Translations under genes and position numbers: made by a program | Notes under the pieces: model-generated | Told to the model about the DNA's origin: nothing | The model's database searches: none | The model's input: only the letters and a program-made list of their open reading frames with translations | From: Candidatus Roizmanbacteria bacterium GW2011_GWC1_37_12 | GTDB lineage: Bacteria > Patescibacteriota > Microgenomatia > UBA1406 > GWC2-37-13 | DNA: 64,000 nucleotides | Assembly (NCBI GenBank): GCA_000991135.1 | Contig: LBST01000006.1 | Location: 46,663-110,662, forward strand | Direction: 5' to 3' | Shown: piece after piece, positions 8,668-29,746 of the stretch | Layout: each line of letters begins with the position of its first letter | Numbering within the stretch: position 1 is the stretch's first letter

Positions 8668-8945
8668 TATTTTTTGAGGCCGAGGTCTTTGATTAATTTT
8701 TTATACCTTTTCTCGTCTAATTTCTGCAAATAATTAAGGATTCTTCTTCTTTTGGCAATTACTTTAAGTAAACCTCGGCGGGAATGATTGTCTTTTTTGT
8801 TAATGTCTAGATGTTCTGTTAATTTGTCAATTTTATGGCTAAGTAAGGCAGCTTGGACTTCTGGAGAACCGGTGTCGCCTTTGCCTTGAGCAAACTTTTC
8901 AATGATCTTTTGCTTATCATCTGGTAATTTTGCTAATTTTGTCAT
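8667..8945 (-). CDS. rpsO: 30S ribosomal protein S15
   Basis: 92 aa, GDTGSPEVQAALLSHKI..LTEHL...KDNHSRRGLL. The conserved rpsO-pnp order is present. Confidence 0.95.
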   Translation of the reverse strand: MTKLAKLPDDKQKIIEKFAQGKGDTGSPEVQAALLSHKIDKLTEHLDINKKDNHSRRGLLKVIAKRRRILNYLQKLDEKRYKKLIKDLGLKK

Positions 8946-8960
8946 AGTTTATCATTATAA

Positions 8961-9245
8961 TTGATACTAATGTTACTTGCAATACTTTTTTTTCTTTTAA
9001 TTATCGTCGCCATTATCCTTTTTGTCCCGCCTCTTCATTGGCTCATTGTCTTAGCCCTAATCGCCCTAATCTCCCTAACAGCTTTTTTTGGGCTAAGATT
9101 CTCCACTCACTCTAAAAAATATTCTTTCCTCGGTTCTACTTTGCTTTTTGTCATTCTTTCTCTTCTCGCCTTAGATCTTTTCGACCCAGTCAACGTCGTC
9201 TTAACCACCAGCTTGTTCGTCGGAATTCTCATTCTATTAAAATAA
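8961..9245 (+). CDS. Hypothetical small membrane protein
   Basis: 94-aa ORF with 3 predicted TM helices. The TTG start is uncertain (ATG at 8970). Confidence 0.4.
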   Translation: MILMLLAILFFLLIIVAIILFVPPLHWLIVLALIALISLTAFFGLRFSTHSKKYSFLGSTLLFVILSLLALDLFDPVNVVLTTSLFVGILILLK

Positions 9246-9293
9246 AAAGGTTCTGTCCTTTCACTTCGTTCGCTCGGAATGACAAAGATAAGA

Positions 9294-9302
9294 TGTTATA
9301 AT
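9294..9302 (+). promoter_or_regulatory. Extended -10 box TGTTATAAT, 7 nt upstream of the metG ATG (leaderless-type start)
   Basis: TG-T-TATAAT at 9294-9302; ATG at 9310; no Shine-Dalgarno. Confidence 0.5.
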
Positions 9303-9309
9303 TTAATCT

Positions 9310-12941: not shown

Positions 12942-13327
12942 ACTACCCTGATTTTTATAAAAATATTAAAACGATTGCCATCGTAGGTTTATCTGATAAA
13001 TCTGATCGGCCTTCATACAAAGTTTGTAAATATTTAATGGAACACGGCTTTAAGATTATTCCTGTCAATCCTAATATCGAATCAGTCTTTGGTTTAAAAA
13101 GTTTTCAGAATTTAAAAGATATAAAAGAACCTATCGATGTCGTTGATATTTTTCGAAAATCAGAATTTGTCGAACCTATCGTCGATGAAGCAATCAAAAT
13201 CGGTGCTAAGTCAATCTGGATGCAGGAAGGCGTTGTCAATGAAGTCGCCGCCGCCAAAGCCCGTTCTGCCGGATTAACTGTTGTCATGAACATGTGCATG
13301 ATGAAAGAATACAAAAAAATCATTTGA
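12938..13327 (+). CDS. CoA-binding domain protein (YccU/YneT-like)
   Basis: IAIVGLSDKSDRPSYKV...GFKIIPVNP...VDIFR...GAKSIWMQ, a typical CoA_binding_2 pattern. Confidence 0.8.
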   Translation: MNYPDFYKNIKTIAIVGLSDKSDRPSYKVCKYLMEHGFKIIPVNPNIESVFGLKSFQNLKDIKEPIDVVDIFRKSEFVEPIVDEAIKIGAKSIWMQEGVVNEVAAAKARSAGLTVVMNMCMMKEYKKII

Positions 13328-13360
13328 CAATTAAATAATATACTAGTATACTAGTATACA
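13324..13360 (+). promoter_or_regulatory. Promoter (TTGACA-17-TATACT) overlapped by a tandem CTAG palindromic operator
   Basis: TTGACA 13324-29; TATACT 13347-52; TATACTAGTATACTAGTATAC 13339-59 with CTAG centres 8 bp apart. Confidence 0.55.
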
Positions 13361-13363
13361 AAT

Positions 13364-13609
13364 ATGAACAAAGTAGGGGAGCTTATTGAGTCTTTTTTGA
13401 AAAATAAGACAAGCGCTGAAATGCTTGATTTTTTAAAAGGCATTTTAACACCACATGAGTTTGAAAAACTGGTAACAAGATTGCAAATAGTAAAACTATT
13501 AAAAAAAGGCCTCCCCCACCAAGAGATCGCCCGCCGATTAAAAGTTGGTGTGGCCACGGTGACAAGAGGGTCTAGGGAATTAAGAATGGGAAGATTTAAA
13601 AAAATATGA
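13364..13609 (+). CDS. Trp-repressor-fold regulator (YerC/YecD family)
   Basis: 81 aa; LTPHEFEKLVTRLQIVKLLKKGLPHQEIARRLKVGVATVTRGSREL matches the YerC/TrpR helix-turn-helix pattern. Confidence 0.85.
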   Translation: MNKVGELIESFLKNKTSAEMLDFLKGILTPHEFEKLVTRLQIVKLLKKGLPHQEIARRLKVGVATVTRGSRELRMGRFKKI

Positions 13610-13656
13610 AAAACAAAATATTTTCAAATAATTGGTGGATAGATTCCCTCTGGTGA
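13606..13656 (+). CDS. Candidate Trp leader peptide MKNKIFSNNWWIDSLW
   Basis: The ATG overlaps the upstream stop (ATATGA). 3 of 16 codons are TGG, two of them tandem. Alternative hairpins and a terminator follow immediately. Confidence 0.6.
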   Translation: MKNKIFSNNWWIDSLW

Positions 13657-13709
13657 AGCAGATGATTTTTTGGTGGTCAAACCTCTGCTTCAAGCGGAGG
13701 CTTTTTTTA
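13654..13709 (+). terminator. Attenuator: antiterminator (13654-62 with 13684-92) overlapping an intrinsic terminator (13682-88 / 13694-13700 plus T-run)
   Basis: TGAAGCAGA pairs with TCTGCTTCA. CCTCTGC-TTCAA-GCGGAGG is followed by CTTTTTTT. Confidence 0.6.
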
Positions 13710-13724
13710 TTAATAGTTCAAATT

Positions 13725-13800
13725 GTCATTGCGAGCGTCAGCGAAGCAATCTCAAAAATAGATCCCTCGCTTCCCTTCCAGGGTAAACGCTCGGGATGAC
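13725..13800. repeat. Composite palindromic repeat (GTCATTGCG...CGGGATGAC variant of the GTCAT/ATGAC family)
   Basis: Unit 1 is GTCATTGCGAGCGTCAGCGAAGCAATC. Unit 2 is GATCCCTCGCTTCCCTTCCAGGGTAAACGCTCGGGATGAC. It ends 1 nt before the trpB Shine-Dalgarno GGGAGGAG. Confidence 0.8.
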
Positions 13801-13812
13801 GGGAGGAGAAAT

Positions 13813-15120
13813 ATGAAAAACACAAAAATAACATTATCAGATTCGGAAATTCCGGAATATTACCTAAATATTTCTTATTATTTAAGCAAATATCTTAAGA
13901 AACTTCCGGAGCCGCCTTTAAATCCAGGGACCAAAAAGCCTGTCGGCCCAGCGGATTTGTCAGCGATTTTTCCAATGGAACTAATCAAGCAGGAAGTGTC
14001 ACTTGAAGAAAAAATCAGGATTCCCGAAGAAGTCAGGGAGCTATACAAACTTTACCGGCCGACTCCATTGATTCGCGCCTTTAGGCTGGAAAAATTCTTG
14101 GATACACCCGCTCATATCTATTATAAATACGAGGGAGCAGCGCCAACCGGTGCTCATAAACTAAATACCGCGATCGCCCAGGCTTATTACAACAAAAAGG
14201 AAGGCGTAAAAACCCTGGCGACGGAAACCGGAGCCGGCCAGTGGGGTTCGGCTCTTGCCCTGGCTGCCAATTTCTTTGAAATGAAGTTGGTCGTCTTTAT
14301 GGTAAGAGTCAGTTTGGACCAAAAACCTTTCCGAAAAACCGTTATGGAGACGTACGGCGCCGAAGTCTTTGCCAGTCCGTCGGAAAAGACAGAGTTTGGT
14401 AAGAAAATTTTAAAAACCAATCCCGATCATCCGGGCAGTCTAGGTATTGCCATCAGCGAGGCTCTGGAAACTGTCGTAAAAAATAAAGGCTATAAATATT
14501 CTCTCGGCAGCGTCCTGAATCACGTTTTGCTTCATCAAACAGTGGTCGGGCTTGAAGCAAAGAAACAGATGGAAAAAGACGGAGAATATCCGGATGTCAT
14601 CATCGGCTGCGTCGGCGGCGGCAGTAATTTTGCCGGCATTGCTTTTCCTTTTATGACAGATAAATTAAAAGCCAAAAAGAAAGTCCGTTTCATCGGCGTC
14701 GAACCGTCATCTTGTCCGTCTTTAACCAAAGGCAGGTATAAATACGACTTTGGCGATACCGCCCAGATGACGCCGCTTTTAAAAATGCATACTTTGGGAT
14801 CGGACTTTGTCCCTTCACCCATTCATGCCGGAGGATTGCGTTATCACGGCATGGCGCCATTGATTTCGTTTTTATACAACGAAAAACTAATGGAGGCAGT
14901 TGCCTATGAGCAAAATCCTGTTTTTCAAGCCGGAGTCGATTTTGCCCGTACTGAAGGGATCATTCCGGCGCCCGAGTCAAACCATGCTATAAAAGCGACC
15001 ATCGACGAAGCTCTAAAAGCTAAAAAAGAGGGAAAGAAAAAAATAATTCTTTTCAACCTTTCCGGTCACGGCCTTTTAGATCTCAACGGTTATGACAAAT
15101 TTTTACACAAAAAATTATAA
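13813..15120 (+). CDS. trpB: Tryptophan synthase beta chain, TrpB2 type
   Basis: 435 aa with a TrpB2-type N-terminal extension; PLP-lysine motif [10 protein letters not shown]; GGGSNFAG. Strong SD GGGAGGAG. No trpA nearby. Confidence 0.9.
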
Positions 15121-15135
15121 ATCTAAAGTAAAAAA

Positions 15136-16095
15136 ATGGCAGAGAAGAAAAGTGTTACAAAAATGTGGAGCGCTTTAAATCCTTCTATATTTGAAAGGGG
15201 TAGCTTTACTATGTTGTTTAAAAAACTAGAATTACTAAGTGTTGCTCATACAGTTGCTGACTTAGTTATGCCAAATAATGGGGCTATAGAAAATTTATAT
15301 CTAATAGGCTGCGCCACTGCCAATCGAGAAATAAGAGTAATAAAACAAGCTAATCAATCCTTAGTAAATAAAATTTGTATGAAGAATGTTCAAGCAATAG
15401 ACATTGCCCCTCAACTATTAGCTGTTGCTGATAAAAGATTAAGTTTGTTGAAATTATTTGGCTTAGTGAAAAATTACACAACCCAACAACTTTCTGCAGA
15501 ACAAATCAAATTTACAAAAAATAAAATGAATAGCTTAGCTATTTTAGGTATATACGATTTAAATGGTCTTCTAAAAGAAGGATCAGAAAAAAATGACGAG
15601 CCTTTAGGACTTGATGAATATTCAGGTCCAATGAGAGATGTGCTTGGAGAGTTAACTCAAATTTCATCCCTTCAATATTTAAATAGTGAGTTCAAAGAAA
15701 AAGAATTAATAGCAGATTATGATAGTTCTGCTCCTAATCATAATAATAATAAAATAAGAGAAAAACTTAGAAATTATCATAGTAGCAATACTGATATTTG
15801 CGCAATGAGAATAGCAATAAAGCATAAATCTAATCCTGATTCACCTGTTTTTGTCTCAACTTGGTTTAATTTAGTAATGATGAAATCCATCTTTCAAGAA
15901 TTAGGATTAGATTGTCAAATTAATTCATTAGATAGCGATAAAGGGGCTGTTCTTGTTGTCACTAAAAAAGGTTTTCGAAAGGATTATGGAGCATCAAATA
16001 TTGCACTTGCTCTCAATAATGTTTTTGGTAACTTGGCAAACGATCGAATCTTAACTAATTTTGCAAGAAAACTTGTTACATTTTGCAACAACTAA
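15136..16095 (+). CDS. Hypothetical protein, weak class I SAM-methyltransferase-like pattern
   Basis: 319-aa ORF 15 nt after trpB. LYLIGCATANRE and VQAIDIAPQLLAVA loosely resemble MTase motifs I and post-I. Very AT-rich by eye. Confidence 0.45.
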   Translation: MAEKKSVTKMWSALNPSIFERGSFTMLFKKLELLSVAHTVADLVMPNNGAIENLYLIGCATANREIRVIKQANQSLVNKICMKNVQAIDIAPQLLAVADKRLSLLKLFGLVKNYTTQQLSAEQIKFTKNKMNSLAILGIYDLNGLLKEGSEKNDEPLGLDEYSGPMRDVLGELTQISSLQYLNSEFKEKELIADYDSSAPNHNNNKIREKLRNYHSSNTDICAMRIAIKHKSNPDSPVFVSTWFNLVMMKSIFQELGLDCQINSLDSDKGAVLVVTKKGFRKDYGASNIALALNNVFGNLANDRILTNFARKLVTFCNN

Positions 16096-16099
16096 AAAT

Positions 16100-17275
16100 A
16101 TGAAAAAACAAAGAATAATTATTATCGGTGGAGGATCAACTGGATTATCTACAGCTATAAATTTAGCTAAATTTAATGAAAATGAAATAATAGTTTTAGA
16201 AAAATCTTTTGTTGGCTCTGGACAAACAGGTCAATGTTGTGGTTTTGTCAGAACATTTTACAATAAAAAAGAGATGGCTTTTTCCGCTTTTAAAAGTAAT
16301 CAGGAAATTAAAAGAATTTCAAAGCAAAATAATGATATTGAATATATTAAAAAGGGACTTTTAGTTATAAACAGTTTAAAAAATAAAAATCTGTTGATGG
16401 AAAACATCAAAATGTTAAGGTCATTAGGAATTAAGGCAGAATATCTAGAGAATAAACAACTTAATAAAATTAATCCATACATAAAAACTGAAAATAGTTA
16501 CGCCGGATTTGACCCAGAAGCCGGGTATGTGAATTCACGTCTCGTAGTAGATTACTTAAAAAATCAATGCGAAAATTTAGGAGTTAAAATAATTGAAAAT
16601 ACTAAAGTTTTAAATATTAGACTTAAAAAGAAAATTTTTTATATAAGGACTAATAAAGGCGAACTTAAGGCTGCTAAAGTATTTAACGCCACTGCAGCTT
16701 ACTCAAACAAGATCAATTCTTTTTTTGACTTTCAACTTCCTATAAAAATAGTAAAAACCAATAACTGTTTTTATAGACTACCAATGGGCCCACAAAGATT
16801 TACAACTGCGATCGCTGATTTTGTTAACCTTTTCTATATAATTCCCCATAAAGAGTTTATCGATGTAAGTTCACTCACTGTTGATTTAAAAAAACAAGTA
16901 AATCCTGAAGATAAAAACATCTACAGACTTGATGAAAACGCATCTAAGCAATATTTAAATATAATTTCAAAAAGAATAAAAAATGCTGAGAAATCAAGTC
17001 TCTTGGGAGGTTTTGGTTCATGTATAGATATTAGTCCTGATTATTATCCAATATTAGGCAAAATAGATGAAGTTCCAAATTTCTATTGCGCTACCGGCTT
17101 TAGCGGAACTGGCTTTAAACATTTTCCTATGATTGGAATTCTTATGGCAGAAACTATTCTTGAAAAAAAACCAACTTATCCAAACCTAGTATCATATTTT
17201 AATTATAAAAGATTTGAGAAAGAAAAGGAAAAAGAAAGGAAAAAGGTAACCGATAGTTATTTCGTAAAAAAATAA
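16100..17275 (+). CDS. FAD-dependent amine oxidoreductase (DAO family, sarcosine/N-methylamino-acid oxidase-like)
   Basis: Dinucleotide fold RIIIIGGGSTGLSTA...VLEK and a C-terminal ATGFSGTGFKHFPMIG like the GFSGHGFKF motif of MSOX/MTOX-type enzymes. The ATG at 16100 is preferred over the ORF-track start at 16061. Confidence 0.8.
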   Translation: MKKQRIIIIGGGSTGLSTAINLAKFNENEIIVLEKSFVGSGQTGQCCGFVRTFYNKKEMAFSAFKSNQEIKRISKQNNDIEYIKKGLLVINSLKNKNLLMENIKMLRSLGIKAEYLENKQLNKINPYIKTENSYAGFDPEAGYVNSRLVVDYLKNQCENLGVKIIENTKVLNIRLKKKIFYIRTNKGELKAAKVFNATAAYSNKINSFFDFQLPIKIVKTNNCFYRLPMGPQRFTTAIADFVNLFYIIPHKEFIDVSSLTVDLKKQVNPEDKNIYRLDENASKQYLNIISKRIKNAEKSSLLGGFGSCIDISPDYYPILGKIDEVPNFYCATGFSGTGFKHFPMIGILMAETILEKKPTYPNLVSYFNYKRFEKEKEKERKKVTDSYFVKK

Positions 17276-17276
17276 T

Positions 17277-18872
17277 ATGTTAAGCAAATATGAAATAAGT
17301 CGAGGCGGGAGAGTAAAGGCAGCAGGACTTTCTCTGGCAATGTTCACCGATCCTGCTGAGGCATATTTTGGCCATCCAAATGCAATTAATGCTGCAATGA
17401 TGATAGAGACCTTTACAAGGCTTCGCAAATCACCACCAGATGCAATTCGGAATCGTTTTTTTCCTCGCAATCATTCAACTCATGGTATGTTGAAAAATGG
17501 CGCTGCACTATCTCGAACATCAATTACTAATCATCAAGGGATAGGACAATTTTTAGCACATAGCGAAAAAGACGGAACACAAACGGAAACCCAACTGAGA
17601 ATTGATATTGCAGAACAAACTGGTTTTGTAATTCTTGAAGCACATTTAGAACATCAGATAAACAAACTTCAATATCCTTATGGTATGTACTCAAAAATAC
17701 AGGAAGTGAAAGAGTATTTTGCCAGCGGTAATATTCCTGAAGCCCAATTAGCATATGAAAGACTTTTGCTTGCCGGAGAAGAGCTTGGCATCCAAGTTCA
17801 AAGAACGGCAAAAGTGGGACGTGAAGGTTTATTTTTTATTCACCCAAGCATTTCTAGGTTCCCTATTGAGATTGACTCCGCAACTCATGAAAAAATGCAA
17901 CTTAAAGGTAATCAATTAGTTGAAATCATGGTGGAGATAGCTAATCAGAAACAAAAACAATTCGCGTTTGATCATCAATTACCTACACCATTAAATAAAA
18001 TAGATTATCCTCCACTTTATTTTCAAATTGATTTTTTAATCAATAAGGATCGAAGCTTTGCTGTTTCCGATGTTGGCTTGCCAGACGTTGGATTATTTCT
18101 TACCGCTATTGAGAGTGAGGGAAATCAAACGGTTGAGGAAGCAAAACAAACTGTAGCTGGAAGATTGAATAAAGTGTCATTGTCGATATTTAATAAGGCA
18201 ATAGAATACGGTTCAAAAACGATTAGTTTTATCACGAGAAAATCGGTAATAGAAAACCTTGAAGATACTCTAGAAATAAAGGAAATAGAAGTATTACGGG
18301 GTTTGCTTGAAAAAACAGGATTTCAAACAAACATTATCTCTGAAGAACAAGCTCTGGATATGACCCCTGACGATCTTGGCATACTTATGAATGTGGACAC
18401 GTCATCACCTGGTTTTCAAAACCTTCTAAAAAGAAGGCTTGTTGAAGAATCAGTACCCATTCACCCCGACCCTTTTTTATTACTTGCACAAAATGAACTT
18501 ACTGAACTTCCACAAGTTACTGTATCAAAAGAGAGTATTGATTTACTGAGAGGTGTTTTTTCCACAACAGAAAAAACAGATAATATAACAAAATCAGCAG
18601 TTCAACTAGCGGCTGTTGAACGGATTATTAGAAAGTTAGGAATGCCAGATGAATGCGACATTTTTCATATGTACATTCCTGGTCAACCAACTCCCATTCC
18701 ATTTTATCAATTTGACTTAAAAGGATTACAGGTTGCCCTAAACTACGCCGTTGATGCTCCCGAAGTATTACTTAGAGGAATACCTGTCAATCCTGATAAT
18801 GCTGTTCTTTTTGATACTAATGGTAAACCTGTTTATGCAACATTTCGTTATATGTTTAATCAAAAACTATGA
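17277..18872 (+). CDS. Hypothetical 531-aa protein (very tentative ATP-grasp-like ligase features)
   Basis: Long ORF 1 nt after the flavoenzyme gene. LYFQIDFLINKDRSFAVSDVGLPDVG vaguely recalls the ATP-grasp xDFxx..ExNxxPG strand-loop. No firm family. Confidence 0.55.
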   Translation: MLSKYEISRGGRVKAAGLSLAMFTDPAEAYFGHPNAINAAMMIETFTRLRKSPPDAIRNRFFPRNHSTHGMLKNGAALSRTSITNHQGIGQFLAHSEKDGTQTETQLRIDIAEQTGFVILEAHLEHQINKLQYPYGMYSKIQEVKEYFASGNIPEAQLAYERLLLAGEELGIQVQRTAKVGREGLFFIHPSISRFPIEIDSATHEKMQLKGNQLVEIMVEIANQKQKQFAFDHQLPTPLNKIDYPPLYFQIDFLINKDRSFAVSDVGLPDVGLFLTAIESEGNQTVEEAKQTVAGRLNKVSLSIFNKAIEYGSKTISFITRKSVIENLEDTLEIKEIEVLRGLLEKTGFQTNIISEEQALDMTPDDLGILMNVDTSSPGFQNLLKRRLVEESVPIHPDPFLLLAQNELTELPQVTVSKESIDLLRGVFSTTEKTDNITKSAVQLAAVERIIRKLGMPDECDIFHMYIPGQPTPIPFYQFDLKGLQVALNYAVDAPEVLLRGIPVNPDNAVLFDTNGKPVYATFRYMFNQKL

Positions 18873-19258
18873 AATTCTGCACACCAATTAATACGAATAA
18901 TGCGGTGAGGTTTGCCATGAAGTTATTGTTGTCTTCCAAGGAGTCGGTGGACATGACCATGGATATGCAGGGCGAAATAGACCATCCACTGCCGCAAAGG
19001 TATCATCATTTGATAGCACGACTTGTGAAATGTAAGATAACGGTAGCCCGATATATGTACGGAGAAAAAAAATTATTTGAGGAGATTAAGAATCGGTATG
19101 AAGGAGTTCGAGTATATTATGGCGGCAAAATGGACAGGTACCAGCGAATGCTCATTATTGATAAAAAAAAGGGCATGTTTGCGCTGAATGGGAATATATT
19201 TTTCACCACCTTTAAGCCACTTATTAACAGTTTATTTATTTATATTTCAGTTAATTAA
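18869..19258 (+). CDS. Hypothetical 129-aa protein, translationally coupled to the 531-aa ORF
   Basis: ATGA start/stop overlap at 18869-18872. No motif recognised. Confidence 0.45.
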   Translation: MKFCTPINTNNAVRFAMKLLLSSKESVDMTMDMQGEIDHPLPQRYHHLIARLVKCKITVARYMYGEKKLFEEIKNRYEGVRVYYGGKMDRYQRMLIIDKKKGMFALNGNIFFTTFKPLINSLFIYISVN

Positions 19259-19268
19259 TTAACTGAAA
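19245..19268. promoter_or_regulatory. Perfect 24-bp palindrome TTTCAGTTAATTAATTAACTGAAA upstream of trpS
   Basis: Spans the stop codon of the 129-aa ORF and lies 25 nt upstream of the trpS -10 TATAAT (19293-98). AGTTAA/TTAACT half sites resemble TrpR operator half sites. Confidence 0.4.
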
Positions 19269-19305
19269 CAAATAATTTACAAAATATTTAGGTATAATCA
19301 AAACT

Positions 19306-20775
19306 ATGATAGATCAAAAAGTAACAGACTATAGTGAACTGCTTACCAATCTTGGTATAGAAAATAAGGTATTAAGCCATCCTGAATCAAGAAATATTGA
19401 TCAAGTTATCGGTTCTCTTGGCAAAACAAGATCAGATAGTGCTGCAACACTGGTTATGAAAGCTGATGATACATATATCTCCATCATTAGAAGAGACGAC
19501 TGTAAGTTAAATACCAAAAAAGTAAAAAAACTTTTAGGAGTAGATAGTTTAAGGATCGCAACTGATGAAGAATTTATTGAAATCACAGGATTAATTCCTG
19601 GAGCAGCCACGTATTTTAATAAAAATATCACTAAGGTTTTAATTGATAAAAAAGTTTTAGAAAAGGAATTTATAGTTGGCGGCTCGGGAAGTTTTTTATT
19701 TAGTATAAGTCATAAAACATCGGATTTAACAAAAATCCCCGGAAGTCAATTAGTTGATGTTGCTGAAGAAAGTTTAGTAATAACTGATTCAAAATATTTG
19801 GGGAAAAAACGGGTTTTTTCAGGAATCAGGGCAACAGGTAGATTGCATTTAGGTAATTATCTGGGAGCAGTTAAAGGGTTTCTCGAACTTGAAAAAACCT
19901 GCAAATACGAAACTGTTTACTGTGTTGTTGATGTGCACTCAATAACAACCCCATATGATAAAGAAGCGCTTGCCAAAAATAAAAGAGAAATCATCATTGA
20001 TTATTTGGCAGCTGGACTTGATCCAAAAAAAAGTATCATTATCTATCAGTCGGATGTACCGGAACATATTGAGTTGGCATTCTATTTTTCAACAGTTGAA
20101 ACGATTGCGAGGATGATGCATCTGCCAACTTATAAAGAAAAAGTAAAACAGTATCCAAACGCCAATACAATGGCTCTTTTGAACTATCCGATTTTAATGG
20201 CGGCTGATATTTTAATCTATAAAGCTAGCCTTGTCCCAGTTGGCATTGATCAAGAACCACATTTGGAAATCACCCGGGAAATTGCCAGAAAGATGAATCA
20301 ACTTTACGGAACCGATTTTCCTGAGCCTGTCAGGTTTGCTACTAAAGGAGAATATATTCCATCTCTTACTGGCGAGGGAAAAATGAGCAAGACTGTTGCC
20401 GGAAGTTTTATCAATCTAACTGATTCTTTTGATGAAATTAGGAAAAAGATCCGATCAGCTCCGACGGCAACCACATCAGGAGGTGAAATGTCTTCTGGAG
20501 TAAAAACTCTTTTTACTTTTGCCCAATTATTTATCCCAAACGAAGTCGAAGGATTTAAAAAGTCATTTGAGGACAAATCTCTCCAATTTGTCCGACTAAA
20601 AGATGCTATTTCCGAGGCGATTTATAAAGAACTTAAACCATTCCAAGAAAGACGGGCAAAAATCGCCGCTGATCAAAAATATGTTGACGAAGTGATCAAA
20701 GATGGCGCCGAACGCGCCCGCAAAATCGCCAAGGAAACCGTCCGTGAAGTCAAACAAAAGATGGGTTTACTATAG
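19306..20775 (+). CDS. trpS: Tryptophan--tRNA ligase with N-terminal YbaK/ProX-like (aminoacyl-tRNA editing fold) domain
   Basis: Residues about 168-489 are TrpRS (GRLHLGNYLGA, KMSKT). Residues 1 to about 165 match the YbaK/EbsC pattern (LSHPESR...TLVMK...ISIIRRDDCKLNTKKVKKLLG...TGLIPGA...VGGSG). Confidence 0.85.
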   Translation: MIDQKVTDYSELLTNLGIENKVLSHPESRNIDQVIGSLGKTRSDSAATLVMKADDTYISIIRRDDCKLNTKKVKKLLGVDSLRIATDEEFIEITGLIPGAATYFNKNITKVLIDKKVLEKEFIVGGSGSFLFSISHKTSDLTKIPGSQLVDVAEESLVITDSKYLGKKRVFSGIRATGRLHLGNYLGAVKGFLELEKTCKYETVYCVVDVHSITTPYDKEALAKNKREIIIDYLAAGLDPKKSIIIYQSDVPEHIELAFYFSTVETIARMMHLPTYKEKVKQYPNANTMALLNYPILMAADILIYKASLVPVGIDQEPHLEITREIARKMNQLYGTDFPEPVRFATKGEYIPSLTGEGKMSKTVAGSFINLTDSFDEIRKKIRSAPTATTSGGEMSSGVKTLFTFAQLFIPNEVEGFKKSFEDKSLQFVRLKDAISEAIYKELKPFQERRAKIAADQKYVDEVIKDGAERARKIAKETVREVKQKMGLL

Positions 20776-23493: not shown

Positions 23494-23781
23494 TTATTTT
23501 AATACCTTCTCATATCCACCACATCCTCTAAATAACCAGTGAGCTGTTCGCGTAACCGTAGTTGTTGAGACTCCAAGTTTCTTAGCGATTGCCTTATAAG
23601 ACATTCCTTTTTTAAGGAGTCTCGCCATCTCTAGTCGATTTGCAAATTCTTCAATCTCTTTTATCGTTAAAAGATCTCTTAAAAAATTGGCTACATCCTG
23701 TTCTGTTTTCAATTTTAAGAAGGCACTAGACAGTGCCTTCTCTTTATCATTTTTTGGTTTATAGTTTTGAAAATTAGACAT
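23494..23781 (-). CDS. Trp-repressor-fold regulator (YerC/YecD family), second paralog
   Basis: 95 aa; LLTIKEIEEFANRLEMARLLKKGMSYKAIAKKLGVSTTTVTRTAHWL. TATAAT lies 6 nt upstream of the ATG. Confidence 0.85.
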   Translation of the reverse strand: MSNFQNYKPKNDKEKALSSAFLKLKTEQDVANFLRDLLTIKEIEEFANRLEMARLLKKGMSYKAIAKKLGVSTTTVTRTAHWLFRGCGGYEKVLK

Positions 23782-23801
23782 AAATAAATTATAAACTAAT
23801 C

Positions 23802-23829
23802 CACTACATTATATTAATATATTGTAGTG
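23802..23829. promoter_or_regulatory. Near-perfect 28-bp palindrome CACTACATTATATTAATATATTGTAGTG in the divergent control region
   Basis: One central mismatch. Lies over the -35 region expected for the minus-strand regulator gene. Confidence 0.4.
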
Positions 23830-23841
23830 AAATAAATACTC

Positions 23842-23870
23842 TTGACTTTTTAAAGTCTATATATTATCAT
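23842..23870 (+). promoter_or_regulatory. Putative promoter TTGACT-17-TATCAT for the leader/HAL operon
   Basis: TTGACT 23842-47, 17-nt spacer, TATCAT 23865-70. Confidence 0.45.
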
Positions 23871-23894
23871 ATTAATACGTTAATATAAACAACG

Positions 23895-23914
23895 CACTTT
23901 AATTAATTAAAGTG
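23895..23914. promoter_or_regulatory. Perfect 20-bp palindrome CACTTTAATTAATTAAAGTG in the 5' UTR
   Basis: Between the putative TSS and the leader ATG at 23926. Shares the TTAATTAATTAA core with the palindrome at 19245. Confidence 0.4.
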
Positions 23915-23925
23915 GATAAATAATC

Positions 23926-24006
23926 ATGGATCAATTTAACGACAAAAAAAATTATTTTAATGAAGTTCATCACGCCCTGCCTCTGGCGGGGTTGCCTAAT
24001 ATGTAG
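23926..24006 (+). CDS. Candidate leader ORF MDQFNDKKNYFNEVHHALPLAGLPNM
   Basis: 26 codons with adjacent His codons CAT CAC (23968-73), located 12 nt upstream of the antiterminator arm GGCGGGG (23985-91). The SD is weak. Confidence 0.35.
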   Translation: MDQFNDKKNYFNEVHHALPLAGLPNM

Positions 24007-24019
24007 TTAACTAGTTAAC
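24006..24019. promoter_or_regulatory. Perfect 14-bp palindrome GTTAACTAGTTAAC (TrpR-operator-like core)
   Basis: Centred on CTAG (24011-14), immediately after the leader stop codon. Confidence 0.4.
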
Positions 24020-24031
24020 TGAATTACTCTA

Positions 24032-24058
24032 CCCCGCCTACAAGGCGGGTTTTTGTTT
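24032..24058 (+). terminator. Intrinsic terminator CCCGCC-TACAA-GGCGGG plus TTTTTGTTT, with alternative pairing to 23985-23991
   Basis: 6-bp GC stem plus T tract, 32 nt upstream of the HAL-like ATG. CCCCGCC (24032-38) is perfectly complementary to GGCGGGG (23985-91). Confidence 0.6.
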
Positions 24059-24089
24059 GGATTAAAAATTATAAATTTTAAAAAATTTT

Positions 24090-25652
24090 ATGAAACAAAT
24101 AAATGAAGTCACTATCACGGGTCGCGATTTAACAATTGAACAAATTAAGGCAGTTGCCAGAGATTATGTCAAACTAGAAATTGGTAAAGAAGCTTTTTCT
24201 AAAAGTAAGCAAGGATACAATATTTTACAGGAAAAAATTAATAAAAAAGAAAAAATTTATGGCGTAACAACCGGGTTTGGTGAATTTTCTCAAGTATTTA
24301 TTGATCCTGAAAAAGCGGCTCAATTACAACTTAATCTTATCCTAAGCCACAGCACCGGAGTTGGCGATCCAGCTTCCGAAGATGTCGTTCGCGCCACCAT
24401 GTTGTGCCGAGCTAACTATCTGGCGTCAGGCATGTCAGGAGGAAGACCTATTCTTTTGCAAATTCTTATTGAAATGTTAAATAAAAGAGTTACTCCTTTA
24501 ATACTGGAACAAGGATCAGTAGGATCAAGCGGAGATCTGGCTCCATTGGCAATGATGGTCTTACCGATGATTGGCGTTGGCGAAGCGTTTTACCAAGGCA
24601 AGAGAATGTCTGGAAAATTAGCAATGGAAAAAGCTGGTATTCCTTTGATAAAACTCCAAGCTAAAGAAGGATTGGCCTTGATCAATGGCGATACTTTTAT
24701 GGCTGGATTAGGATCTCTTGAACTTTATGATGCTTTGCAATTAGCAAAAATTTCTGAGATTTCCTGTGCAATGACAATGGAAGCAATTGAGGTGGTCCTT
24801 CAAGCTATGGATGAAAAAATTGCTAGAGCAAGAAGGTTCAATGGTCAAATTACAGCAGCTAGAAATTTAAGAAAACTCATGAATAAGAGTGAAATTCTTG
24901 CCGGACCTCCACAGCGAGTTCAAGACGCTTATTCGATCCGTTGCGCACCAGTTATTCTCGGTGCTAGTCGAGAAGCTCTCCTTTGGGTAAAGCGCCAGTT
25001 TGAAACAGAGATTAACGCCGCTCAAGATAATCCATTAGTGTTTTTAGAAACAAAGGAAGTTTTATCAGGTGGCAATTTTCACGGTCAACCAATAGCCATG
25101 CCTTTGGAAACTATGGCTCAAGCAATTCAAGAATATGCCAATAGTTCAGAAATTCGTCAGGAACGAATGAATAATCCTTATTACAGTAAAATATTGCCGG
25201 CATTTCTTATCGAATCAGGCGGATTAAATTCAGGATTTATGATGCCCCAGTATGCATCAGCTGCGCTAGTCAATGAAAACAAAATCCTTTGCTACCCGGG
25301 AATCGTTGACTCAATTCCTGTTTCAGCCGGACAAGAAGATGACTGTTCAATGGGAACAAATGCTGCTTTAAAAATTCAAAGAATAATAAGGAACACCATG
25401 TATGTCTTGGCAATTGAACTTATGCTCGGTTGTCAAGCATTGGACTTTAAAAAAGGCAAAAAACCAGGTCTTGGAGTATTTGTTGCATACAAATTAATTA
25501 GAGAAACAGTTCCCTATATTAAAAAAGATTCAATCATGTATCCAATGGTTAAAGAAATTTTTGAACTAATAAAGTCAGAAAAAATAGTCCAAACAGTAGA
25601 AAATTCTATCGGCAAATTAGAAGAACCGAAAGATTTACTAAAACCACTATGA
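24090..25652 (+). CDS. Histidine ammonia-lyase-like MIO enzyme (aromatic amino acid lyase family)
   Basis: GVTTGFGEF, LILSHSTGVG (the Ser-His pair typical of HAL rather than PAL/TAL), MIO-forming GSVGSSGDLAPLA (SSG instead of ASG), NGDT and QDAYSIRC. Confidence 0.85.
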   Translation: MKQINEVTITGRDLTIEQIKAVARDYVKLEIGKEAFSKSKQGYNILQEKINKKEKIYGVTTGFGEFSQVFIDPEKAAQLQLNLILSHSTGVGDPASEDVVRATMLCRANYLASGMSGGRPILLQILIEMLNKRVTPLILEQGSVGSSGDLAPLAMMVLPMIGVGEAFYQGKRMSGKLAMEKAGIPLIKLQAKEGLALINGDTFMAGLGSLELYDALQLAKISEISCAMTMEAIEVVLQAMDEKIARARRFNGQITAARNLRKLMNKSEILAGPPQRVQDAYSIRCAPVILGASREALLWVKRQFETEINAAQDNPLVFLETKEVLSGGNFHGQPIAMPLETMAQAIQEYANSSEIRQERMNNPYYSKILPAFLIESGGLNSGFMMPQYASAALVNENKILCYPGIVDSIPVSAGQEDDCSMGTNAALKIQRIIRNTMYVLAIELMLGCQALDFKKGKKPGLGVFVAYKLIRETVPYIKKDSIMYPMVKEIFELIKSEKIVQTVENSIGKLEEPKDLLKPL

Positions 25653-26563
25653 ATAATTCGTTATCACTAGGCGAAGGCAATACACCACTAATCCGTCTCT
25701 TTAATTTAGAGACATTATTAAATTGGAAAGGTGAAATCTGGGTAAAAGCCGAATACCAGAATCCAACTGGTTCTTTTAAAGACCGAGGCAGTGTTACCGA
25801 AATAACCGATGCTTTGAATCAAAAAAAACAAGGTGTTATTTGCGCATCGACCGGAAATATGGCGGCTAGTTTATCAGCCTATGCTTCAAGAGTGAGTTTA
25901 AAATGTTTTGTTGTTGTACCGAAAAATACTCCCCTAGGAAAACTCAAGCAAGCGGCTGTTTGCGGAGCTAAGTTAATAGAAATTGACGGAAACTATGATC
26001 TATGTGTCAAAAAAGCCAAAGAAATTGCTTCAAGAGAAAATCTTCTCCTCTGTGGTGATTATGAGTTAAGGAGATTAGGACAAAGATCTCTAGGACGGGA
26101 ATTAGCCGAATCAGGAATTGATTTTGATGCGTTTGTCGTACCAGTAGGTAATGGAACTCTAGGCTGTGCCATTATTGAAGGATTTGTTGAAAAAGACAGG
26201 TGGCCTCAATTTATCGGAGTTCAAGGAGAAGGATCTGACCCAATAACATTAGCTTGGCAAAATCAAACTGAATCACTTCGATTAATCGAAGTGCCTCAAA
26301 CTGTTGCCTCGGCCATGAAAGTCGGCAACCCTCTTGACGGAAAATTGACTTTAAACTGGGTTTACGAAACTAACGGAATGATGTTGTCTGTTGATGATAA
26401 AGAAATCCTTCTTGCCCAAAAACTTCTTGCTCAAAAAGAAGGAATCTATGTCGAAACTTCTGCTGCCGCAACTTTAGCCGGCTTAATTATTATAAAAAAT
26501 AAAATAAATTCTTTAAAAATTGTTCTTATCCTTACCGGAAGCGGGTTAAAGGAAATAATTTAA
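25649..26563 (+). CDS. Threonine-synthase-like PLP enzyme (fold type II), short form
   Basis: GNTPLIRL, YQNPTGSFKDRG (PLP lysine) and CASTGNMAASLSAYA. 304 aa. ATGA overlap with the HAL-like gene. Confidence 0.8.
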   Translation: MNNSLSLGEGNTPLIRLFNLETLLNWKGEIWVKAEYQNPTGSFKDRGSVTEITDALNQKKQGVICASTGNMAASLSAYASRVSLKCFVVVPKNTPLGKLKQAAVCGAKLIEIDGNYDLCVKKAKEIASRENLLLCGDYELRRLGQRSLGRELAESGIDFDAFVVPVGNGTLGCAIIEGFVEKDRWPQFIGVQGEGSDPITLAWQNQTESLRLIEVPQTVASAMKVGNPLDGKLTLNWVYETNGMMLSVDDKEILLAQKLLAQKEGIYVETSAAATLAGLIIIKNKINSLKIVLILTGSGLKEII

Positions 26564-26564
26564 A

Positions 26565-26729
26565 ATGAAAATTGAAATTCCTGATTTAAATCCCTTTCAA
26601 ATAATAGGTTCATTTCCACGACTATCTGTCGTAGCGGCGAGAGAACCTAGTTTATTTCTTATCCCAACCCCTATTAAATATGAGGAATTACAACAAAGGT
26701 CTAGTGAATTATTTTCCAGATATATATAA
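26565..26729 (+). CDS. N-terminal fragment (motif 1 region) of the HisRS-like protein, in a different frame from the main ORF
   Basis: The ATG lies 1 nt after the upstream stop. MKIEIPDLNP...SLFLIPTPIKYEELQQRSSELFSRYI resembles the HisRS/HisZ N-terminus and the class II motif 1 proline region. It ends at TAA 26727-29 within GATATATATAATGG. Confidence 0.5.
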   Translation: MKIEIPDLNPFQIIGSFPRLSVVAAREPSLFLIPTPIKYEELQQRSSELFSRYI

Positions 26730-27771
26730 TGGCAGGCTTCCTTATAGATTTGTTTATCCTGCGGAAGCATTTAAAACTTATTTAGAAATTTATATTCTTC
26801 TTTTTGACCCGAAGGCTCAACCTGTTCCTGCAAAAGATGTCTTTACAGTAAAAACAGACGACGGCCAAATCGGTTATTTATCAAGAAGTAGTTTTTGGAG
26901 TGCTGTTTTTGACGGTGTGTCGGCAACGAAAAATAATTATTATTTATTGGAGCGGGGAAATGTCTTAAATGTTGGTGGAGTTCAGCCTTGTTTTAGAAAT
27001 GAAGTTAAAGAAATTGAGCCTGGCTGGAGGGAACTTGGTTTTCTTCAAGCTGACATAGAATTAGTTGGTTTAACAACCGAGACAAGAACTCCACAGTGGT
27101 TTGACAAGACGGCTGTCAAACAGTTAATTACTTCTTTAGAATCCATAAATATTCCTCGGCCTTTTATTCAAATCAGACTCAATAATTTTTTCCAAATTTT
27201 ATATGAAGTATTGGGAGACAAAATTGGTTTTTTGGAAAAAGAGATATTTGGGTTAGATTCTTTGGATAAAATGGCCACTGCAAGAGTAAACAAAAATCGA
27301 GAAGAATTTAGTCAATTACAAAAACTTGCTTTTTCCCAACTAGATCTTTGGCTATCCGAAAATAAACTATCAAAAGAGGCAGAAAGTTTTTTATCAACTC
27401 TTGTAACTTCGGGTGTTTATGATGAACAGATACTTAAAACAAGTTTTCCAAATTCGTATCAATCTCTTCAAAACTTAAAAGAAATTGTCGAAGAAATTCA
27501 AAAAGAATATCCTGAATTAACTGTTTTTATTGATCCTCTGTCTGTTAGAGCAGGTACTCCAGGATATGATGGTATGACTATGCAGGCTGATGTAAAAACA
27601 TTGACCAAAATTTTCACCGAACTCGCTGGTGGCGGTGCTTATCAAAGAGCTGCTCAACAAAGCTGGAAAGTCCAATTTCAAGAAAATCCTCCTGAAAATT
27701 TATATATGATCGGTTTCGCCCTTGGACTGACACGTCTCAACACAGCTTTAAATTATTTAAGCCAACAATGA
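26680..27771 (+). CDS. HisRS-like class II aminoacyl-tRNA-synthetase paralog (HisZ-like, no anticodon-binding domain); probably continuous with 26565-26729 through a +1 shift
   Basis: Motif 2-like GGVQPCFRNE...ELGFLQADIELVG, VRAGTPGYDGMTMQ (compare RGLDYYTG) and motif 3-like ELAGGGAYQRAA (compare GGGRYD). Confidence 0.65.
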   Translation: MRNYNKGLVNYFPDIYNGRLPYRFVYPAEAFKTYLEIYILLFDPKAQPVPAKDVFTVKTDDGQIGYLSRSSFWSAVFDGVSATKNNYYLLERGNVLNVGGVQPCFRNEVKEIEPGWRELGFLQADIELVGLTTETRTPQWFDKTAVKQLITSLESINIPRPFIQIRLNNFFQILYEVLGDKIGFLEKEIFGLDSLDKMATARVNKNREEFSQLQKLAFSQLDLWLSENKLSKEAESFLSTLVTSGVYDEQILKTSFPNSYQSLQNLKEIVEEIQKEYPELTVFIDPLSVRAGTPGYDGMTMQADVKTLTKIFTELAGGGAYQRAAQQSWKVQFQENPPENLYMIGFALGLTRLNTALNYLSQQ

Positions 27772-28841
27772 TAAAAAAAGAATTGATTGAACTTAATAAA
27801 AAACTAGTACGATTTAAAACAATCTCCTCAAATAAATCCGAACTAGAAAGATGTATTAGATTTATAGAGAATTATTTTAATATCAATAATTTATTTAAAA
27901 AAATATTTTATTCTAATGGTATTCCTTCGCTCCTCGTGTCCAACTCATTATCAAAAAACCCGGATTTATTATTGAACGGCCATATAGATGTAGTGGAAGG
28001 CAATAATAATCAATTTAAGCCTTTTGTCAAAAACGATAAACTTTATGGAAGAGGGACGATCGACATGAAATCTTCAATAGCTGTGATTATGCTTATTATG
28101 AAGAAGCTTAAATCCACTAATAAAAAAATCTCGGCGATGTTTGTAAGCGATGAAGAGATTTTTGGTAAAGACGGTACAAAATATATTCTCAATAAAGGTT
28201 ATAAGCCAAAATTCACAATAATCACGGAGGAATCAAACTTTGATATCGTTATTAAACAAAAAGGCCAGTTAACTTTAAAACTTGAGGCAAAAGGAAAATC
28301 CGGTCATGGATCACAACCATGGACTGGACTAAATGCTATTGAAGAATTAATTGAAATTTATCAAAAAATAAGAAATTTATTTCCAAAAGAACAAAAAAAC
28401 ACCTGGAATATAAATTCTATTAATTTAGGAATTATTAATGGTGGAGTAGCTCCTAACGTTATTCCCTCAAAGGCAGAATTGATATTAGATATTCGTTATC
28501 CAACAAATCTAAAACTTGATTCTTTCTTAGTTAGATTTTATGGAATTTTAAGAAAATCTAGCGTTACTTATTCTTTATTGACAAAAACAAATCCCATGGA
28601 TTCTGGCAATGCTATATTCTTTATTAATAAACTCAAACCTATTGTTGAAAAACAGATTAAAAGAAAAGCTAAATTAAAATGGACAAATTACTGTAGTGAT
28701 GGTCGTTATTTTTCCGATTCAAAATTACCAGTAATTGAATTTGGTCCGACTGGAGCTAATTATCATACTGATAATGAATATGTAGATATAAACAGTCTGG
28801 TTAATTATTACGAGATTCTAAAGAGATTTATTATTTCTTAG
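27768..28841 (+). CDS. M20 family metallohydrolase (ArgE/DapE/acylase-like)
   Basis: LNGHIDVV, GRGTIDMK, VSDEE, GKSGHGSQP and NGG..PNVIP. Paralog of 49348-50430. Confidence 0.85.
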   Translation: MIKKELIELNKKLVRFKTISSNKSELERCIRFIENYFNINNLFKKIFYSNGIPSLLVSNSLSKNPDLLLNGHIDVVEGNNNQFKPFVKNDKLYGRGTIDMKSSIAVIMLIMKKLKSTNKKISAMFVSDEEIFGKDGTKYILNKGYKPKFTIITEESNFDIVIKQKGQLTLKLEAKGKSGHGSQPWTGLNAIEELIEIYQKIRNLFPKEQKNTWNINSINLGIINGGVAPNVIPSKAELILDIRYPTNLKLDSFLVRFYGILRKSSVTYSLLTKTNPMDSGNAIFFINKLKPIVEKQIKRKAKLKWTNYCSDGRYFSDSKLPVIEFGPTGANYHTDNEYVDINSLVNYYEILKRFIIS

Positions 28842-29009: not shown

Positions 29010-29381
29010 ATGAAATATTTGCAATTAAACGACATATCAAGTTATAAGAAAGCTTTTAATCTTAGTAACTATGTATGGAATATTATTACTAATTGGGATT
29101 ATTTTTCAAAGAAAACAATTGGCGAGCAATTTGTTACTGCAGTCGATTCTATTTCAGCTAATATTGCAGAAGGATTTGGCAGATTTAACAAGAAAGAAAA
29201 AATAAGATTCTACAGAATCAGTCAAGGATCTCTAAAAGAGTCTTTAGATTGGAATGAAAAAGCAAAAATTCGTAAATTATTAAATAAAGACCAATACGAT
29301 CATATTTTTGCAGAACTTCAAAGCCTACCTAAAGAAATTAACGAATTTATTAGATTTACTAACCAAAAACTTAATAACTAA
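29010..29381 (+). CDS. Four-helix-bundle protein (23S rRNA intervening-sequence protein family)
   Basis: YKKAFNLSNYVWNI...QFVTAVDSISANIAEGFGRF...FYRISQGSLKESLDW, the typical family pattern. Confidence 0.8.
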   Translation: MKYLQLNDISSYKKAFNLSNYVWNIITNWDYFSKKTIGEQFVTAVDSISANIAEGFGRFNKKEKIRFYRISQGSLKESLDWNEKAKIRKLLNKDQYDHIFAELQSLPKEINEFIRFTNQKLNN

Positions 29382-29666: not shown

Positions 29667-29674
29667 ATGCCTTG

Positions 29675-29746
29675 TGTCAGCAGCAGGATTCGAACCCGCG
29701 ACCACTCGCTTATGAAACGAGTGCTCTACCGCTGAGCTATGCTGAC
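29675..29746 (-). tRNA. tRNA with anticodon CAT (elongator Met or lysidine-dependent Ile2), no encoded CCA
   Basis: Reverse complement folds as a cloverleaf: GTCAGCA-TA-GCTC-AGCGGTA-GAGC-A-CTCGT-TTCATAA-GCGAG-TGGTC-GCGGG-TTCGAAT-CCTGC-TGCTGAC-A. Confidence 0.85.

Follow-up and report, generated by a model that had tools for sequence, protein, structure and literature searches.

A four-gene operon under predicted histidine control was analysed in a 64,000-nucleotide stretch of DNA from Candidatus Roizmanbacteria bacterium GW2011_GWC1_37_12 (assembly GCA_000991135.1, contig LBST01000006.1, positions 46,663-110,662 of the forward strand), hereafter the window, whose positions serve as coordinates. 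The operon encodes a histidine ammonia-lyase (HAL), a pyridoxal-phosphate (PLP) enzyme derived from ThrC (PALP), a paralogue of histidyl-tRNA synthetase (HisRS) termed HisRSL, and a metallohydrolase of the M20 type (M20). It lies behind a predicted HisR operator and a putative His-codon attenuator, and is therefore predicted to be expressed only when free histidine and charged tRNA-His are low. Such control suggests, at about even chances, that the operon serves to acquire (salvage) histidine when it is limiting, possibly with HAL working in the direction of histidine formation. A preliminary description of this DNA had considered the cluster to be centred on histidine, a view that the analysis upholds. 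The control region and the genes are arranged as follows.

23494-23781, minus strand: divergent hisR-like repressor gene (YerC/YecD family, TrpR fold; PF01371, E = 1.8e-19)
23842-23870, plus strand: promoter-like site TTGACT-17 nt-TATCAT, a consensus match only (10/12)
23869-23886: inverted repeat ATATTAA-N4-TTAATAT over the -10 hexamer
23895-23914: perfect 20-bp palindrome CACTTTAATTAATTAAAGTG, predicted HisR operator
23926-24006, plus strand: leader peptide open reading frame (ORF) encoding MDQFNDKKNYFNEVHHALPLAGLPNM, with its ATG at 23926, His codons at 23968-23973 and stop codon at 24004
23974-24059, plus strand: putative attenuator, drawn from the terminator, the complementarity of segments 2 and 3, and constrained folds
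23975-23982: attenuator segment 1, GCCCUGCC
23985-23992: attenuator segment 2, GGCGGGGU
24031-24038: attenuator segment 3, ACCCCGCC
24044-24050: attenuator segment 4, GGCGGGU, followed by a T run
24090-25652, plus strand: HAL, 520 aa, an enzyme of the methylidene-imidazolone (MIO) type with a Ser-Ser-Gly triad (TIGR01225 hutH, PF00221)
25649-26563, plus strand: PALP, 304 aa, ThrC-derived PLP enzyme of an LCGDY subfamily (PF00291)
26565-26729, plus strand: 5' fragment of HisRSL, 54 codons and a stop, truncated by the loss of 62 nt at 26710/26711
26680-27771, plus strand: 3' part of HisRSL, called as an ORF of 363 aa with a class II catalytic core; homology to the intact protein begins at about 26713
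27768-28841, plus strand: M20, ArgE/DapE-type metallohydrolase, 357 aa (PF01546 and PF07687)

All four genes are co-directional and tightly linked, as the ORFs confirm: 4-nt overlaps join HAL to PALP at 25649 (ATGA) and HisRSL to M20 at 27768, while the ATG of HisRSL at 26565 stands one base past the stop codon of PALP. The motifs quoted in the preliminary description (LILSHSTG, GSSGD, NPTGSFKDRG, STGN, FRNE...FLQADIE and GGGAYQ) are all found in the translations.

The first layer of control is presumably transcriptional. The YerC/YecD family has been identified as HisR, a TrpR-fold repressor that binds DNA only with L-histidine and controls histidine biosynthesis and uptake genes through operators of the consensus cacTTTAnnnnnnTAAAgtg (PMC9413887). 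The divergent gene passes the cutoff of TIGR02531 (60.8 bits against 42.2), and this, together with a palindrome near the promoter that fits the published consensus, places its product in the HisR family. The palindrome at 23895-23914, which also occurs in L001 and L008 (L-numbers denote contigs fetched for homologues), is the sole CTTTA-N6-TAAAG match in the window and lies between the promoter-like site and the leader ORF; as this short core has at least one match in 24 of 100 shuffles, the count alone carries little weight. A HisR homologue adjoins the HAL operon in L002, L008, L009, L015 and L023 as well. Comparable TTGACA/TTGACT promoter-like sequences precede the leaders of L002/L003, L007, L009, L014 and L023. 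The inverted repeat over the -10 hexamer is shared with L008 and L023 and is replaced at that position by GTTAAC-centred palindromes in L002 and L009. The operon thus resembles the described HisR regulon in its adjacent YerC-family gene and in a palindrome matching cacTTTA-N6-TAAAgtg, but its genes belong neither to histidine biosynthesis nor to known uptake, and the phylum is not covered by that study (PMC9413887).

The second layer is a leader with the features of an attenuator, whose His-His pair had been noted in the preliminary description, there solely as an indication of histidine as the ligand, and is confirmed at 23968-23973. Segment 1 begins one nucleotide past the His codons, the leader stop codon falls between segments 2 and 3, and segments 3 and 4 form a terminator hairpin at 24033-24049, where 0.1 such hairpins are expected from shuffles. 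Tandem control codons, a terminator and a mutually exclusive upstream pairing are therefore all found computationally. A ribosome stalled on the His codons would cover segment 1 and free segment 2 to pair with segment 3, while a ribosome that reaches the leader stop would cover part of segment 2 and allow the terminator to form. Judged by sequence, the four-segment arrangement in the window, L008 and L023 is that of the classical his/trp attenuators; the three share the sequences of segments 1-4 but have different loops and peptides, and identical stems provide no covariation.

In eight lineages, HAL is preceded by a leader with two to four His codons in tandem, after which come a hairpin and a U run. 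Their peptides end in SLHHTLPQAGSPFM (L008), NSHHTLPPAGLSFM (L023), SQHHAHILPERRG (L014), GLNHHHNN (L002), SLLHHSLY (L007), LTRHHN (L009) and CLHHHHTAG (L022). Since His accounts for about 2% of codons, a tandem His pair is expected in only about 1% of ORFs of about 25 codons, so the recurrence is not attributable to chance. When a ribosome is placed on the His codons in the folds, its footprint takes away the whole stem beside the U run in L007 and L009, and part of this stem in L002. These leaders share tandem His codons, alternative hairpins and a terminator with hisL but carry only two to four His codons and do not match the Rfam His leader. A T-box or a known His leader in this region is ruled out by the Rfam search, which returned only tRNA at the gathering threshold in the window, nothing credible at E <= 10 in 23750-24120, and no match to RF00514.

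Two further elements were observed in these leader regions. A perfect 16-bp palindrome, AGTTAACTAGTTAACT, lies at 24005-24020 between the leader stop and the terminator, with a CTAG/GTTAAC core reminiscent of operators of the TrpR type; neither L008 nor L023 has this palindrome in its related leader. In L002, the roughly 170 nt (8270-8440) that separate the leader terminator from the start codon of HAL are strongly self-complementary, with nested long hairpins unseen in other lineages.

The neighbourhood was compared by mapping the cluster proteins with tblastn on the fetched contigs, and a metagenome scan with a 6-sequence alignment gave 7 loci. HAL-PALP, HisRSL-M20 or both occur in about a dozen Patescibacteria lineages, with genes that overlap or abut. 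The order HAL-PALP-HisRSL-M20 is found in the window, in L004/L008 (a Patescibacteria metagenome-assembled genome, MAG), and in L013, L014 and L016, whereas HAL, a half-size EamA gene, HisRSL and M20 follow each other without PALP in L002/L003/L015, L006, L007 and L009. HAL-PALP occurs without HisRSL-M20 in L022 and L023-25, so that PALP directly follows HAL in the window, L004/L008, L013, L014, L016, L022 and L023-25. All HisRSL homologues that reach 34% alignment identity to P0002 (P-numbers denote homologous proteins; P0002 is the HisRSL orthologue used as reference) sit between HAL and M20 where the contig is long enough, and M20 always comes next wherever the contig extends past the 3' end of HisRSL. 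This map confirms the expectation of the preliminary description that the neighbourhood is conserved and rules out fortuitous adjacency.

The four genes do not, however, form the indivisible unit that had been supposed, since HAL-PALP and HAL-HisRSL-M20 each occur separately. Two homologues with the LCGDY loop were examined on long contigs, and both follow HAL with overlapping genes and without HisRSL-M20; HAL-PALP is therefore the widespread core pair and HisRSL-M20 the rarer accessory pair. One of these arrangements, L022 (Candidatus Gottesmanbacteria), reads M24, leader, HAL, PALP, a 90-aa ORF, hisS, EamA, rpmE and a release-factor gene. In the other, L023-25, the flanks are largely those of the window, with HisR, leader, HAL and PALP upstream and glycosyltransferases downstream. 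A true hisS lies directly downstream of the cluster in L007, L009, L014 and L022 and close by in L002; in L007, L009, L014 and L002 it is usually followed by an EamA transporter gene, rpmE and a release-factor gene. M24 peptidase and EamA genes recur near the cluster. In the fetched loci, to which this search was confined, no gene called beside HAL has a Pfam match of the hutU, hutI or hutG/F type, in agreement with the preliminary description, which had excluded the Hut pathway.

The first enzyme is a histidine ammonia-lyase by score and residues. It matches PF00221 with E = 9e-169, scores above the cutoffs of the equivalog model for hutH, TIGR01225 (547.9 bits, cutoff 539.15), and of NF006871 (573.6 against 524), and finds its best solved relatives among HALs (7tqr, 6v6h and 1gkm). 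The Ser-His pair of LILSHSTG and the Ser-Ser-Gly triad, singled out earlier as HAL-type residues, are confirmed in the translation; GSSGD, VQDAYSIRC, GNFHGQP and GQEDD are present besides, and VQDAYSIRC, GNFHGQP and QED are conserved in alignments, while the first residue of the MIO triad varies between S, T and A among the orthologues. HAL of the operon thus belongs to the family of HutH from the Hut pathway and keeps its MIO triad and catalytic motifs, but it is paired with PALP, HisRSL and M20, has no hutU, hutI or hutG nearby, and appears to be under control of the starvation type rather than induced by histidine.

PALP had been described as a ThrC-like PLP enzyme, and family (PF00291) and motifs bear this out; an ordinary threonine synthase, however, it is not. 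It passes TIGR00260 thrC narrowly (172.1 bits against 167.1), is 40% identical to the Aquifex threonine synthase 2zsj, and keeps the SFKDRG motif with the PLP lysine as well as STGN. Where 2zsj reads VNSVNPYRIEGQK, PALP reads LCGDYELRRLGQ, and the cluster consensus LCGDY..RR.GQ stands in place of the Aquifex ThrC loop NSVNPYRIEGQK. The ThrC pattern N-S-x-N-P-x-R-x-E-G-Q-K, read from 2zsj, is not found in PALP; the replaced loop is taken here to be the binder of the phosphate of O-phosphohomoserine. The LCGDY loop occurs in nearly all of the 120 closest PALP homologues, of which those with names come from Patescibacteria and are mostly labelled threonine synthase. PALP further differs from threonine synthase in a shorter N terminus and in its place within a histidine-regulated operon. 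Its own invariant loop and its position directly after HAL in the loci examined rule out an ordinary threonine synthase inserted by chance. In L008 (2347-3258; Patescibacteria MAG JAMCTE01), the PALP gene is apparently frameshifted into ORFs of 20 and 234 aa, whereas the near-identical L004 encodes an intact protein of 303 aa.

M20 shows clear matches to PF01546 and PF07687, scores just under the TIGR01910 cutoff (212.3 bits against 217.6), has 2rb7 as its best solved relative, and displays the metal-ligand motifs HxD, D, EE and H in its translation. A second ArgE/DapE-type M20 paralogue, 33.5% identical to the first, is encoded elsewhere in the window (49351-50430, minus strand). From the HAL catalytic residues, the PLP lysine, the class II motifs and the M20 metal ligands, the enzymes of the operon look active.

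HisRSL was less readily classified. The family scan that placed the other three proteins in PF00221, PF00291 and PF01546 gave for HisRSL only a weak match to PF13393 (23.5 bits, below the cutoff of 25), and its match to hisZ (TIGR00443) reaches 27 bits against a cutoff of 271.65. The solved-structure sequence search with the HisRSL profile returned nothing useful, its sole match being TraC at E = 0.03. The family is tiny: among 1.84 billion cluster representatives, only 43 match its profile at E <= 0.001, and 11 do so at E <= 1e-30. An AlphaFold model of P0002 required a 33-sequence alignment, with which it reached pLDDT 90.3 and pTM 0.92 (a 6-sequence alignment gave pLDDT 57), and its top Foldseek matches in the PDB are HisRS, HisZ and the HisRS-like domain of GCN2 (E from about 1e-13 to 1e-11); normalised to the target, the TM scores are highest for HisZ and reach 0.69.

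Comparison of HisRSL with the true HisRS of the same loci by hhalign (probability 76%, from motif 2 to motif 3) shows motifs 2 and 3 of class II synthetases, and those of the histidine pocket of HisRS, to be present in HisRSL; it aligns FRNE with WRAE, GWRELGFLQAD with GRFREFLQCD, SVRAG..GYDG with LARSF.YSTG, and GFALGLxR with GFAIGFDR. In P0002 numbering, R164, E166, F179, Q181, D362, E372 and R410 are invariant in 33 members, and the residues that bind ATP and imidazole (R164, E166, F179, Q181, E/D185, R348, Y354, GGG375-377 and R410) are invariant or nearly so across these divergent proteins, which favours an active enzyme that forms adenylates over a HisZ with a regulatory role alone. HisRSL ends right after motif 3 and has no match to the anticodon-binding domain PF03129, which the true HisRS genes of the same loci do carry. 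The reading of HisRSL as a HisRS catalytic-core paralogue without an anticodon-binding domain was thus well founded, as was its distinction from a classical HisZ, given the hisZ score and the lack of a hisG-like gene among those called in any locus. HisRSL and HisZ share the HisRS-like catalytic fold and the missing anticodon-binding domain; HisRSL differs in its invariant ATP-binding motif residues, an additional segment at the N terminus and a helical insertion of greater size. By the register of motifs and secondary structure, E83 and T85 of E. coli HisRS, which contact the alpha-amino group, probably correspond to Ser129 and Trp131 in HisRSL.

Distant HisRSL homologues (L010, L011/L012 and L018-L021) show at most about 32% identity to P0002 in local tblastn alignments. 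They occur without HAL and M20, their scanned neighbours lack Pfam matches, and they were set aside as a functional clue. One distant relative lies near FRG, phage-sheath-like and TIR/ThsB genes (set L011/L012, P0030, P0035 and P0042), and the same set includes fusions of GNAT, ATP-grasp and HisRS-like domains (about 1,100 aa) and of a HisRS-like domain with a methyltransferase.

The preliminary description had treated HisRSL as a single ORF, which it is not in this window: the frame opened at 26565 ends at the stop codon at 26727-26729, and the 363-aa ORF uses another frame. Both ORFs are identical to GenBank entries KKQ24233.1 and KKQ24234.1 of Candidatus Roizmanbacteria US38_C0006, while a sibling genome, US40_C0002, encodes an intact HisRSL of 422 aa (KKQ26530.1). 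Comparison of length and sequence with this protein reveals that 62 nt are missing from the window at 26710/26711. In L001, an ENA scaffold and a third assembly of the population, ten Ns and an inverted duplicated fragment occupy the same point (about 9938-9975); the fragment after the Ns, 28 nt long, repeats in reverse complement a stretch that lies about 40 nt further downstream, which points to a local misassembly. Because of the intact sibling protein and the Ns and inverted fragment in L001, the break is most likely an assembly fault, and at most a strain-specific lesion. HisRSL orthologues of other lineages are uninterrupted (406-423 aa), so a pseudogene is ruled out as a general explanation.

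The proposal of a salvage module derives from the mode of control. At low histidine, HisR would lose its corepressor, and at low levels of charged tRNA-His the ribosome would stall on the His codons; HisR repression combined with His-tRNA attenuation is the signature of genes that supply histidine, and a supply role also fits the transcription unit, which runs on into a true hisS and an EamA transporter gene in several lineages. A role of HAL as the first Hut enzyme is hard to reconcile with the predicted regulation and with the lack of hutU/I/G in the fetched loci. The preliminary description had offered salvage, conversion of histidine and synthesis of a histidine-derived aminoacyl or N-acyl compound as functions; regulation favours the first, while the others, which would consume histidine, are argued against by a leader geometry and a HisR operator that predict expression at low histidine.

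In the proposed salvage module, HAL would aminate urocanate with ammonia to L-histidine, and PALP, translationally coupled to HAL, would feed or pull this amination, for example with local ammonia from serine or threonine; tight coupling of the two would make the overall reaction favourable. M20 may free histidine from N-acyl or dipeptide conjugates, and HisRSL may capture histidine or a histidine-like acid as an adenylate, driven by ATP. The direction of HAL and every substrate are inferred, and the roles of PALP, HisRSL and M20 are guesses, which itself weakens the salvage proposal. A fully specified route, in which histidine-auxotrophic, ultra-small bacteria convert urocanate to histidine or His-tRNA by a reversed MIO lyase, with ammonia delivered by PALP and, in some lineages, an ATP-driven pull from HisRSL, is rather unlikely when taken as a whole.

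Several observations count against the salvage proposal. HAL passes the catabolic hutH model with all canonical residues, and nothing in its sequence marks a biosynthetic role. The HAL equilibrium lies towards urocanate, with a constant of molar order, and amination requires millimolar urocanate and ammonium or tight coupling, yielding only micromolar histidine at millimolar substrates; such an amount could be enough for slow-growing, very small cells. The analysis revealed neither a urocanate source nor a proven importer. In syntenic L023-25, HisRSL-M20 is swapped for unrelated genes at 8909-10588, which encode a LOG-like protein (PF18306 LDcluster4) and a protein of 379 aa that carries no annotation, so the pair is dispensable for the core function. 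Minimum-free-energy folds keep the terminator even with a stalled ribosome in the window, L008 and L002, and the antiterminator argument for leaders of the window type therefore relies on a kinetic model, as for E. coli trp. Finally, HisR-family control of catabolism is also possible, since an Oscillibacter HisR paralogue clusters with hutH and a histidine permease (PMC9413887).

The salvage reading gains circumstantial support from a second gene set in the same window, which shows the same design. On one strand of 13324-20775 lie the genes listed below, among which the three proteins of 319, 531 and 129 aa have no informative family matches.

13364-13609: TrpR gene, with ACTAGTATACTAGTATAC (ACTAGT-type repeats) in its promoter
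13662: ATG of a short ORF with tandem Trp codons (TGG TGG at 13671-13676), just before a terminator at 13682-13700
13813-15120: stand-alone TrpB2, with the gene of the 319-aa protein next
16061-17275: N-methyltryptophan-oxidase-like flavoenzyme, with the genes of the 531-aa and 129-aa proteins and then trpS after it

With its repressor, control codons, amino-acid-forming enzyme and gene for a cognate aminoacyl-tRNA synthetase (aaRS), this set looks like the histidine operon by analogy. Both have a TrpR-fold or TrpR-family repressor, a tandem-codon ORF, a terminator, a PLP enzyme and a downstream cognate aaRS gene, but this set serves tryptophan, and the chemistry of TrpB2 is known. The Trp-codon ORF runs through the terminator, which makes the direction of control less clear. 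The tryptophanyl-tRNA synthetase (19306-20775) carries an N-terminal YbaK/tRNA_edit-type domain (residues ~12-151), an unusual fusion found also in L001 and L023.

Among the alternatives to salvage, a catabolic or energy/pH module survives best, although it is unlikely. HAL would produce urocanate and ammonia, EamA would exchange substrate and product, and hisS and HisRSL would protect the charging of tRNA-His. The hdc and tdc clusters offer a precedent, as they carry an extra aaRS gene and their hisS or tyrS has been proposed to protect charging. By score and residues HAL is a canonical hutH, and EamA genes recur; besides the Oscillibacter HisR paralogue beside hutH, a hisR2 accompanies a tdc cluster and tyrS (PMC9413887). 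The leader and terminator geometry, however, predicts readthrough when His-tRNA is scarce, and the operator is of a type at which HisR represses with histidine; breakdown of histidine under starvation would be senseless for a probable histidine auxotroph, and no downstream Hut enzymes occur in any locus.

A histidine-derived product or modification is improbable. An MIO 2,3-aminomutase or lyase would act first, HisRSL would ligate beta-histidine or urocanate to a protein, tRNA or small molecule, and M20 would trim or reverse the product. In beta-lysylation, the lysine aminomutase EpmB and the LysRS paralogue EpmA/PoxA act on elongation factor P (EF-P). By analogy, the operon combines an aaRS paralogue that lacks an anticodon-binding domain with a lyase or aminomutase-type enzyme for the same amino acid, but its synthetase paralogue derives from HisRS and not LysRS, and its enzyme is of the MIO and not the radical SAM type. 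MIO aminomutases are close relatives of HAL, the class II catalytic residues of HisRSL are invariant, and the positions of E83/T85 in HisRSL, Ser129/Trp131 as placed by motif mapping, would suit such a ligase. Against this, HAL scores 548-574 bits on HAL models and 351-355 on aminomutase models, a route that consumes histidine is unexpected behind starvation-type control, and HisRSL-M20 is missing from many HAL-PALP operons.

Decidedly improbable is a non-catalytic, HisZ-like HisRSL that senses histidine or uncharged tRNA-His and acts allosterically on HAL, PALP or M20. HisZ is among the best fold matches (TM up to 0.69), has the same domain composition and gives the best NCBIfam match of HisRSL; that score, however, is a tenth of the cutoff, hisG is missing, and the invariance of the motif 2 Arg, Glu and Phe and the motif 3 Arg in 33 members is unexpected for a regulatory paralogue. 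A response to HisRS inhibition, in which falling charging induces the detoxification or sequestration of a histidine antimetabolite or histidyl-adenylate mimic, is very improbable: although the attenuator reports tRNA-His charging and not histidine, and a ligase-like binder combined with an amidohydrolase is reminiscent of pairs that confer immunity to mimics of aminoacyl-adenylates, control by HisR indicates histidine itself as the signal, the toxin, transporter or acetyltransferase usual in such systems is missing, and the conserved core HAL-PALP is left without a role.

The searchable literature yielded no description of the cluster, the HisRSL family or the LCGDY PLP subfamily, and database labels, where given, read hypothetical protein or threonine synthase. 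The families and the regulatory devices are known; new are their combination, a HAL under biosynthetic-type control beside hisS, and a catalytic-looking HisRS paralogue without an assigned function. A textbook catabolic enzyme thus stands behind textbook biosynthetic control, next to hisS, in many lineages. The genomes of Patescibacteria are very small, and most amino-acid biosynthesis is generally considered to be missing from them. Should the operon supply histidine, it would amount to a salvage route not described before, with an MIO lyase that works in reverse under physiological conditions. It would also reveal the function of many PLP enzymes that, if named, mostly go by threonine synthase, and the first one for the very rare HisRS paralogues, whose catalytic residues are retained. 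If the fully specified urocanate route held, a proteinogenic amino acid would be made in a way not known before, and an aaRS paralogue would have acquired a new role. To our knowledge, HisR and leader-peptide attenuation have not been described in the phylum Patescibacteria, to which both would be extended by the control elements predicted here.

Three further genes were recorded in the window. Just downstream of the operon lie a gene of the 23S rRNA intervening-sequence protein family (29010-29381, PF05635) and a tRNA-Met gene (29674-29746, minus strand), the sole tRNA gene in the window. An EamA transporter gene is located elsewhere in the window, at 62307-63167 on the minus strand.

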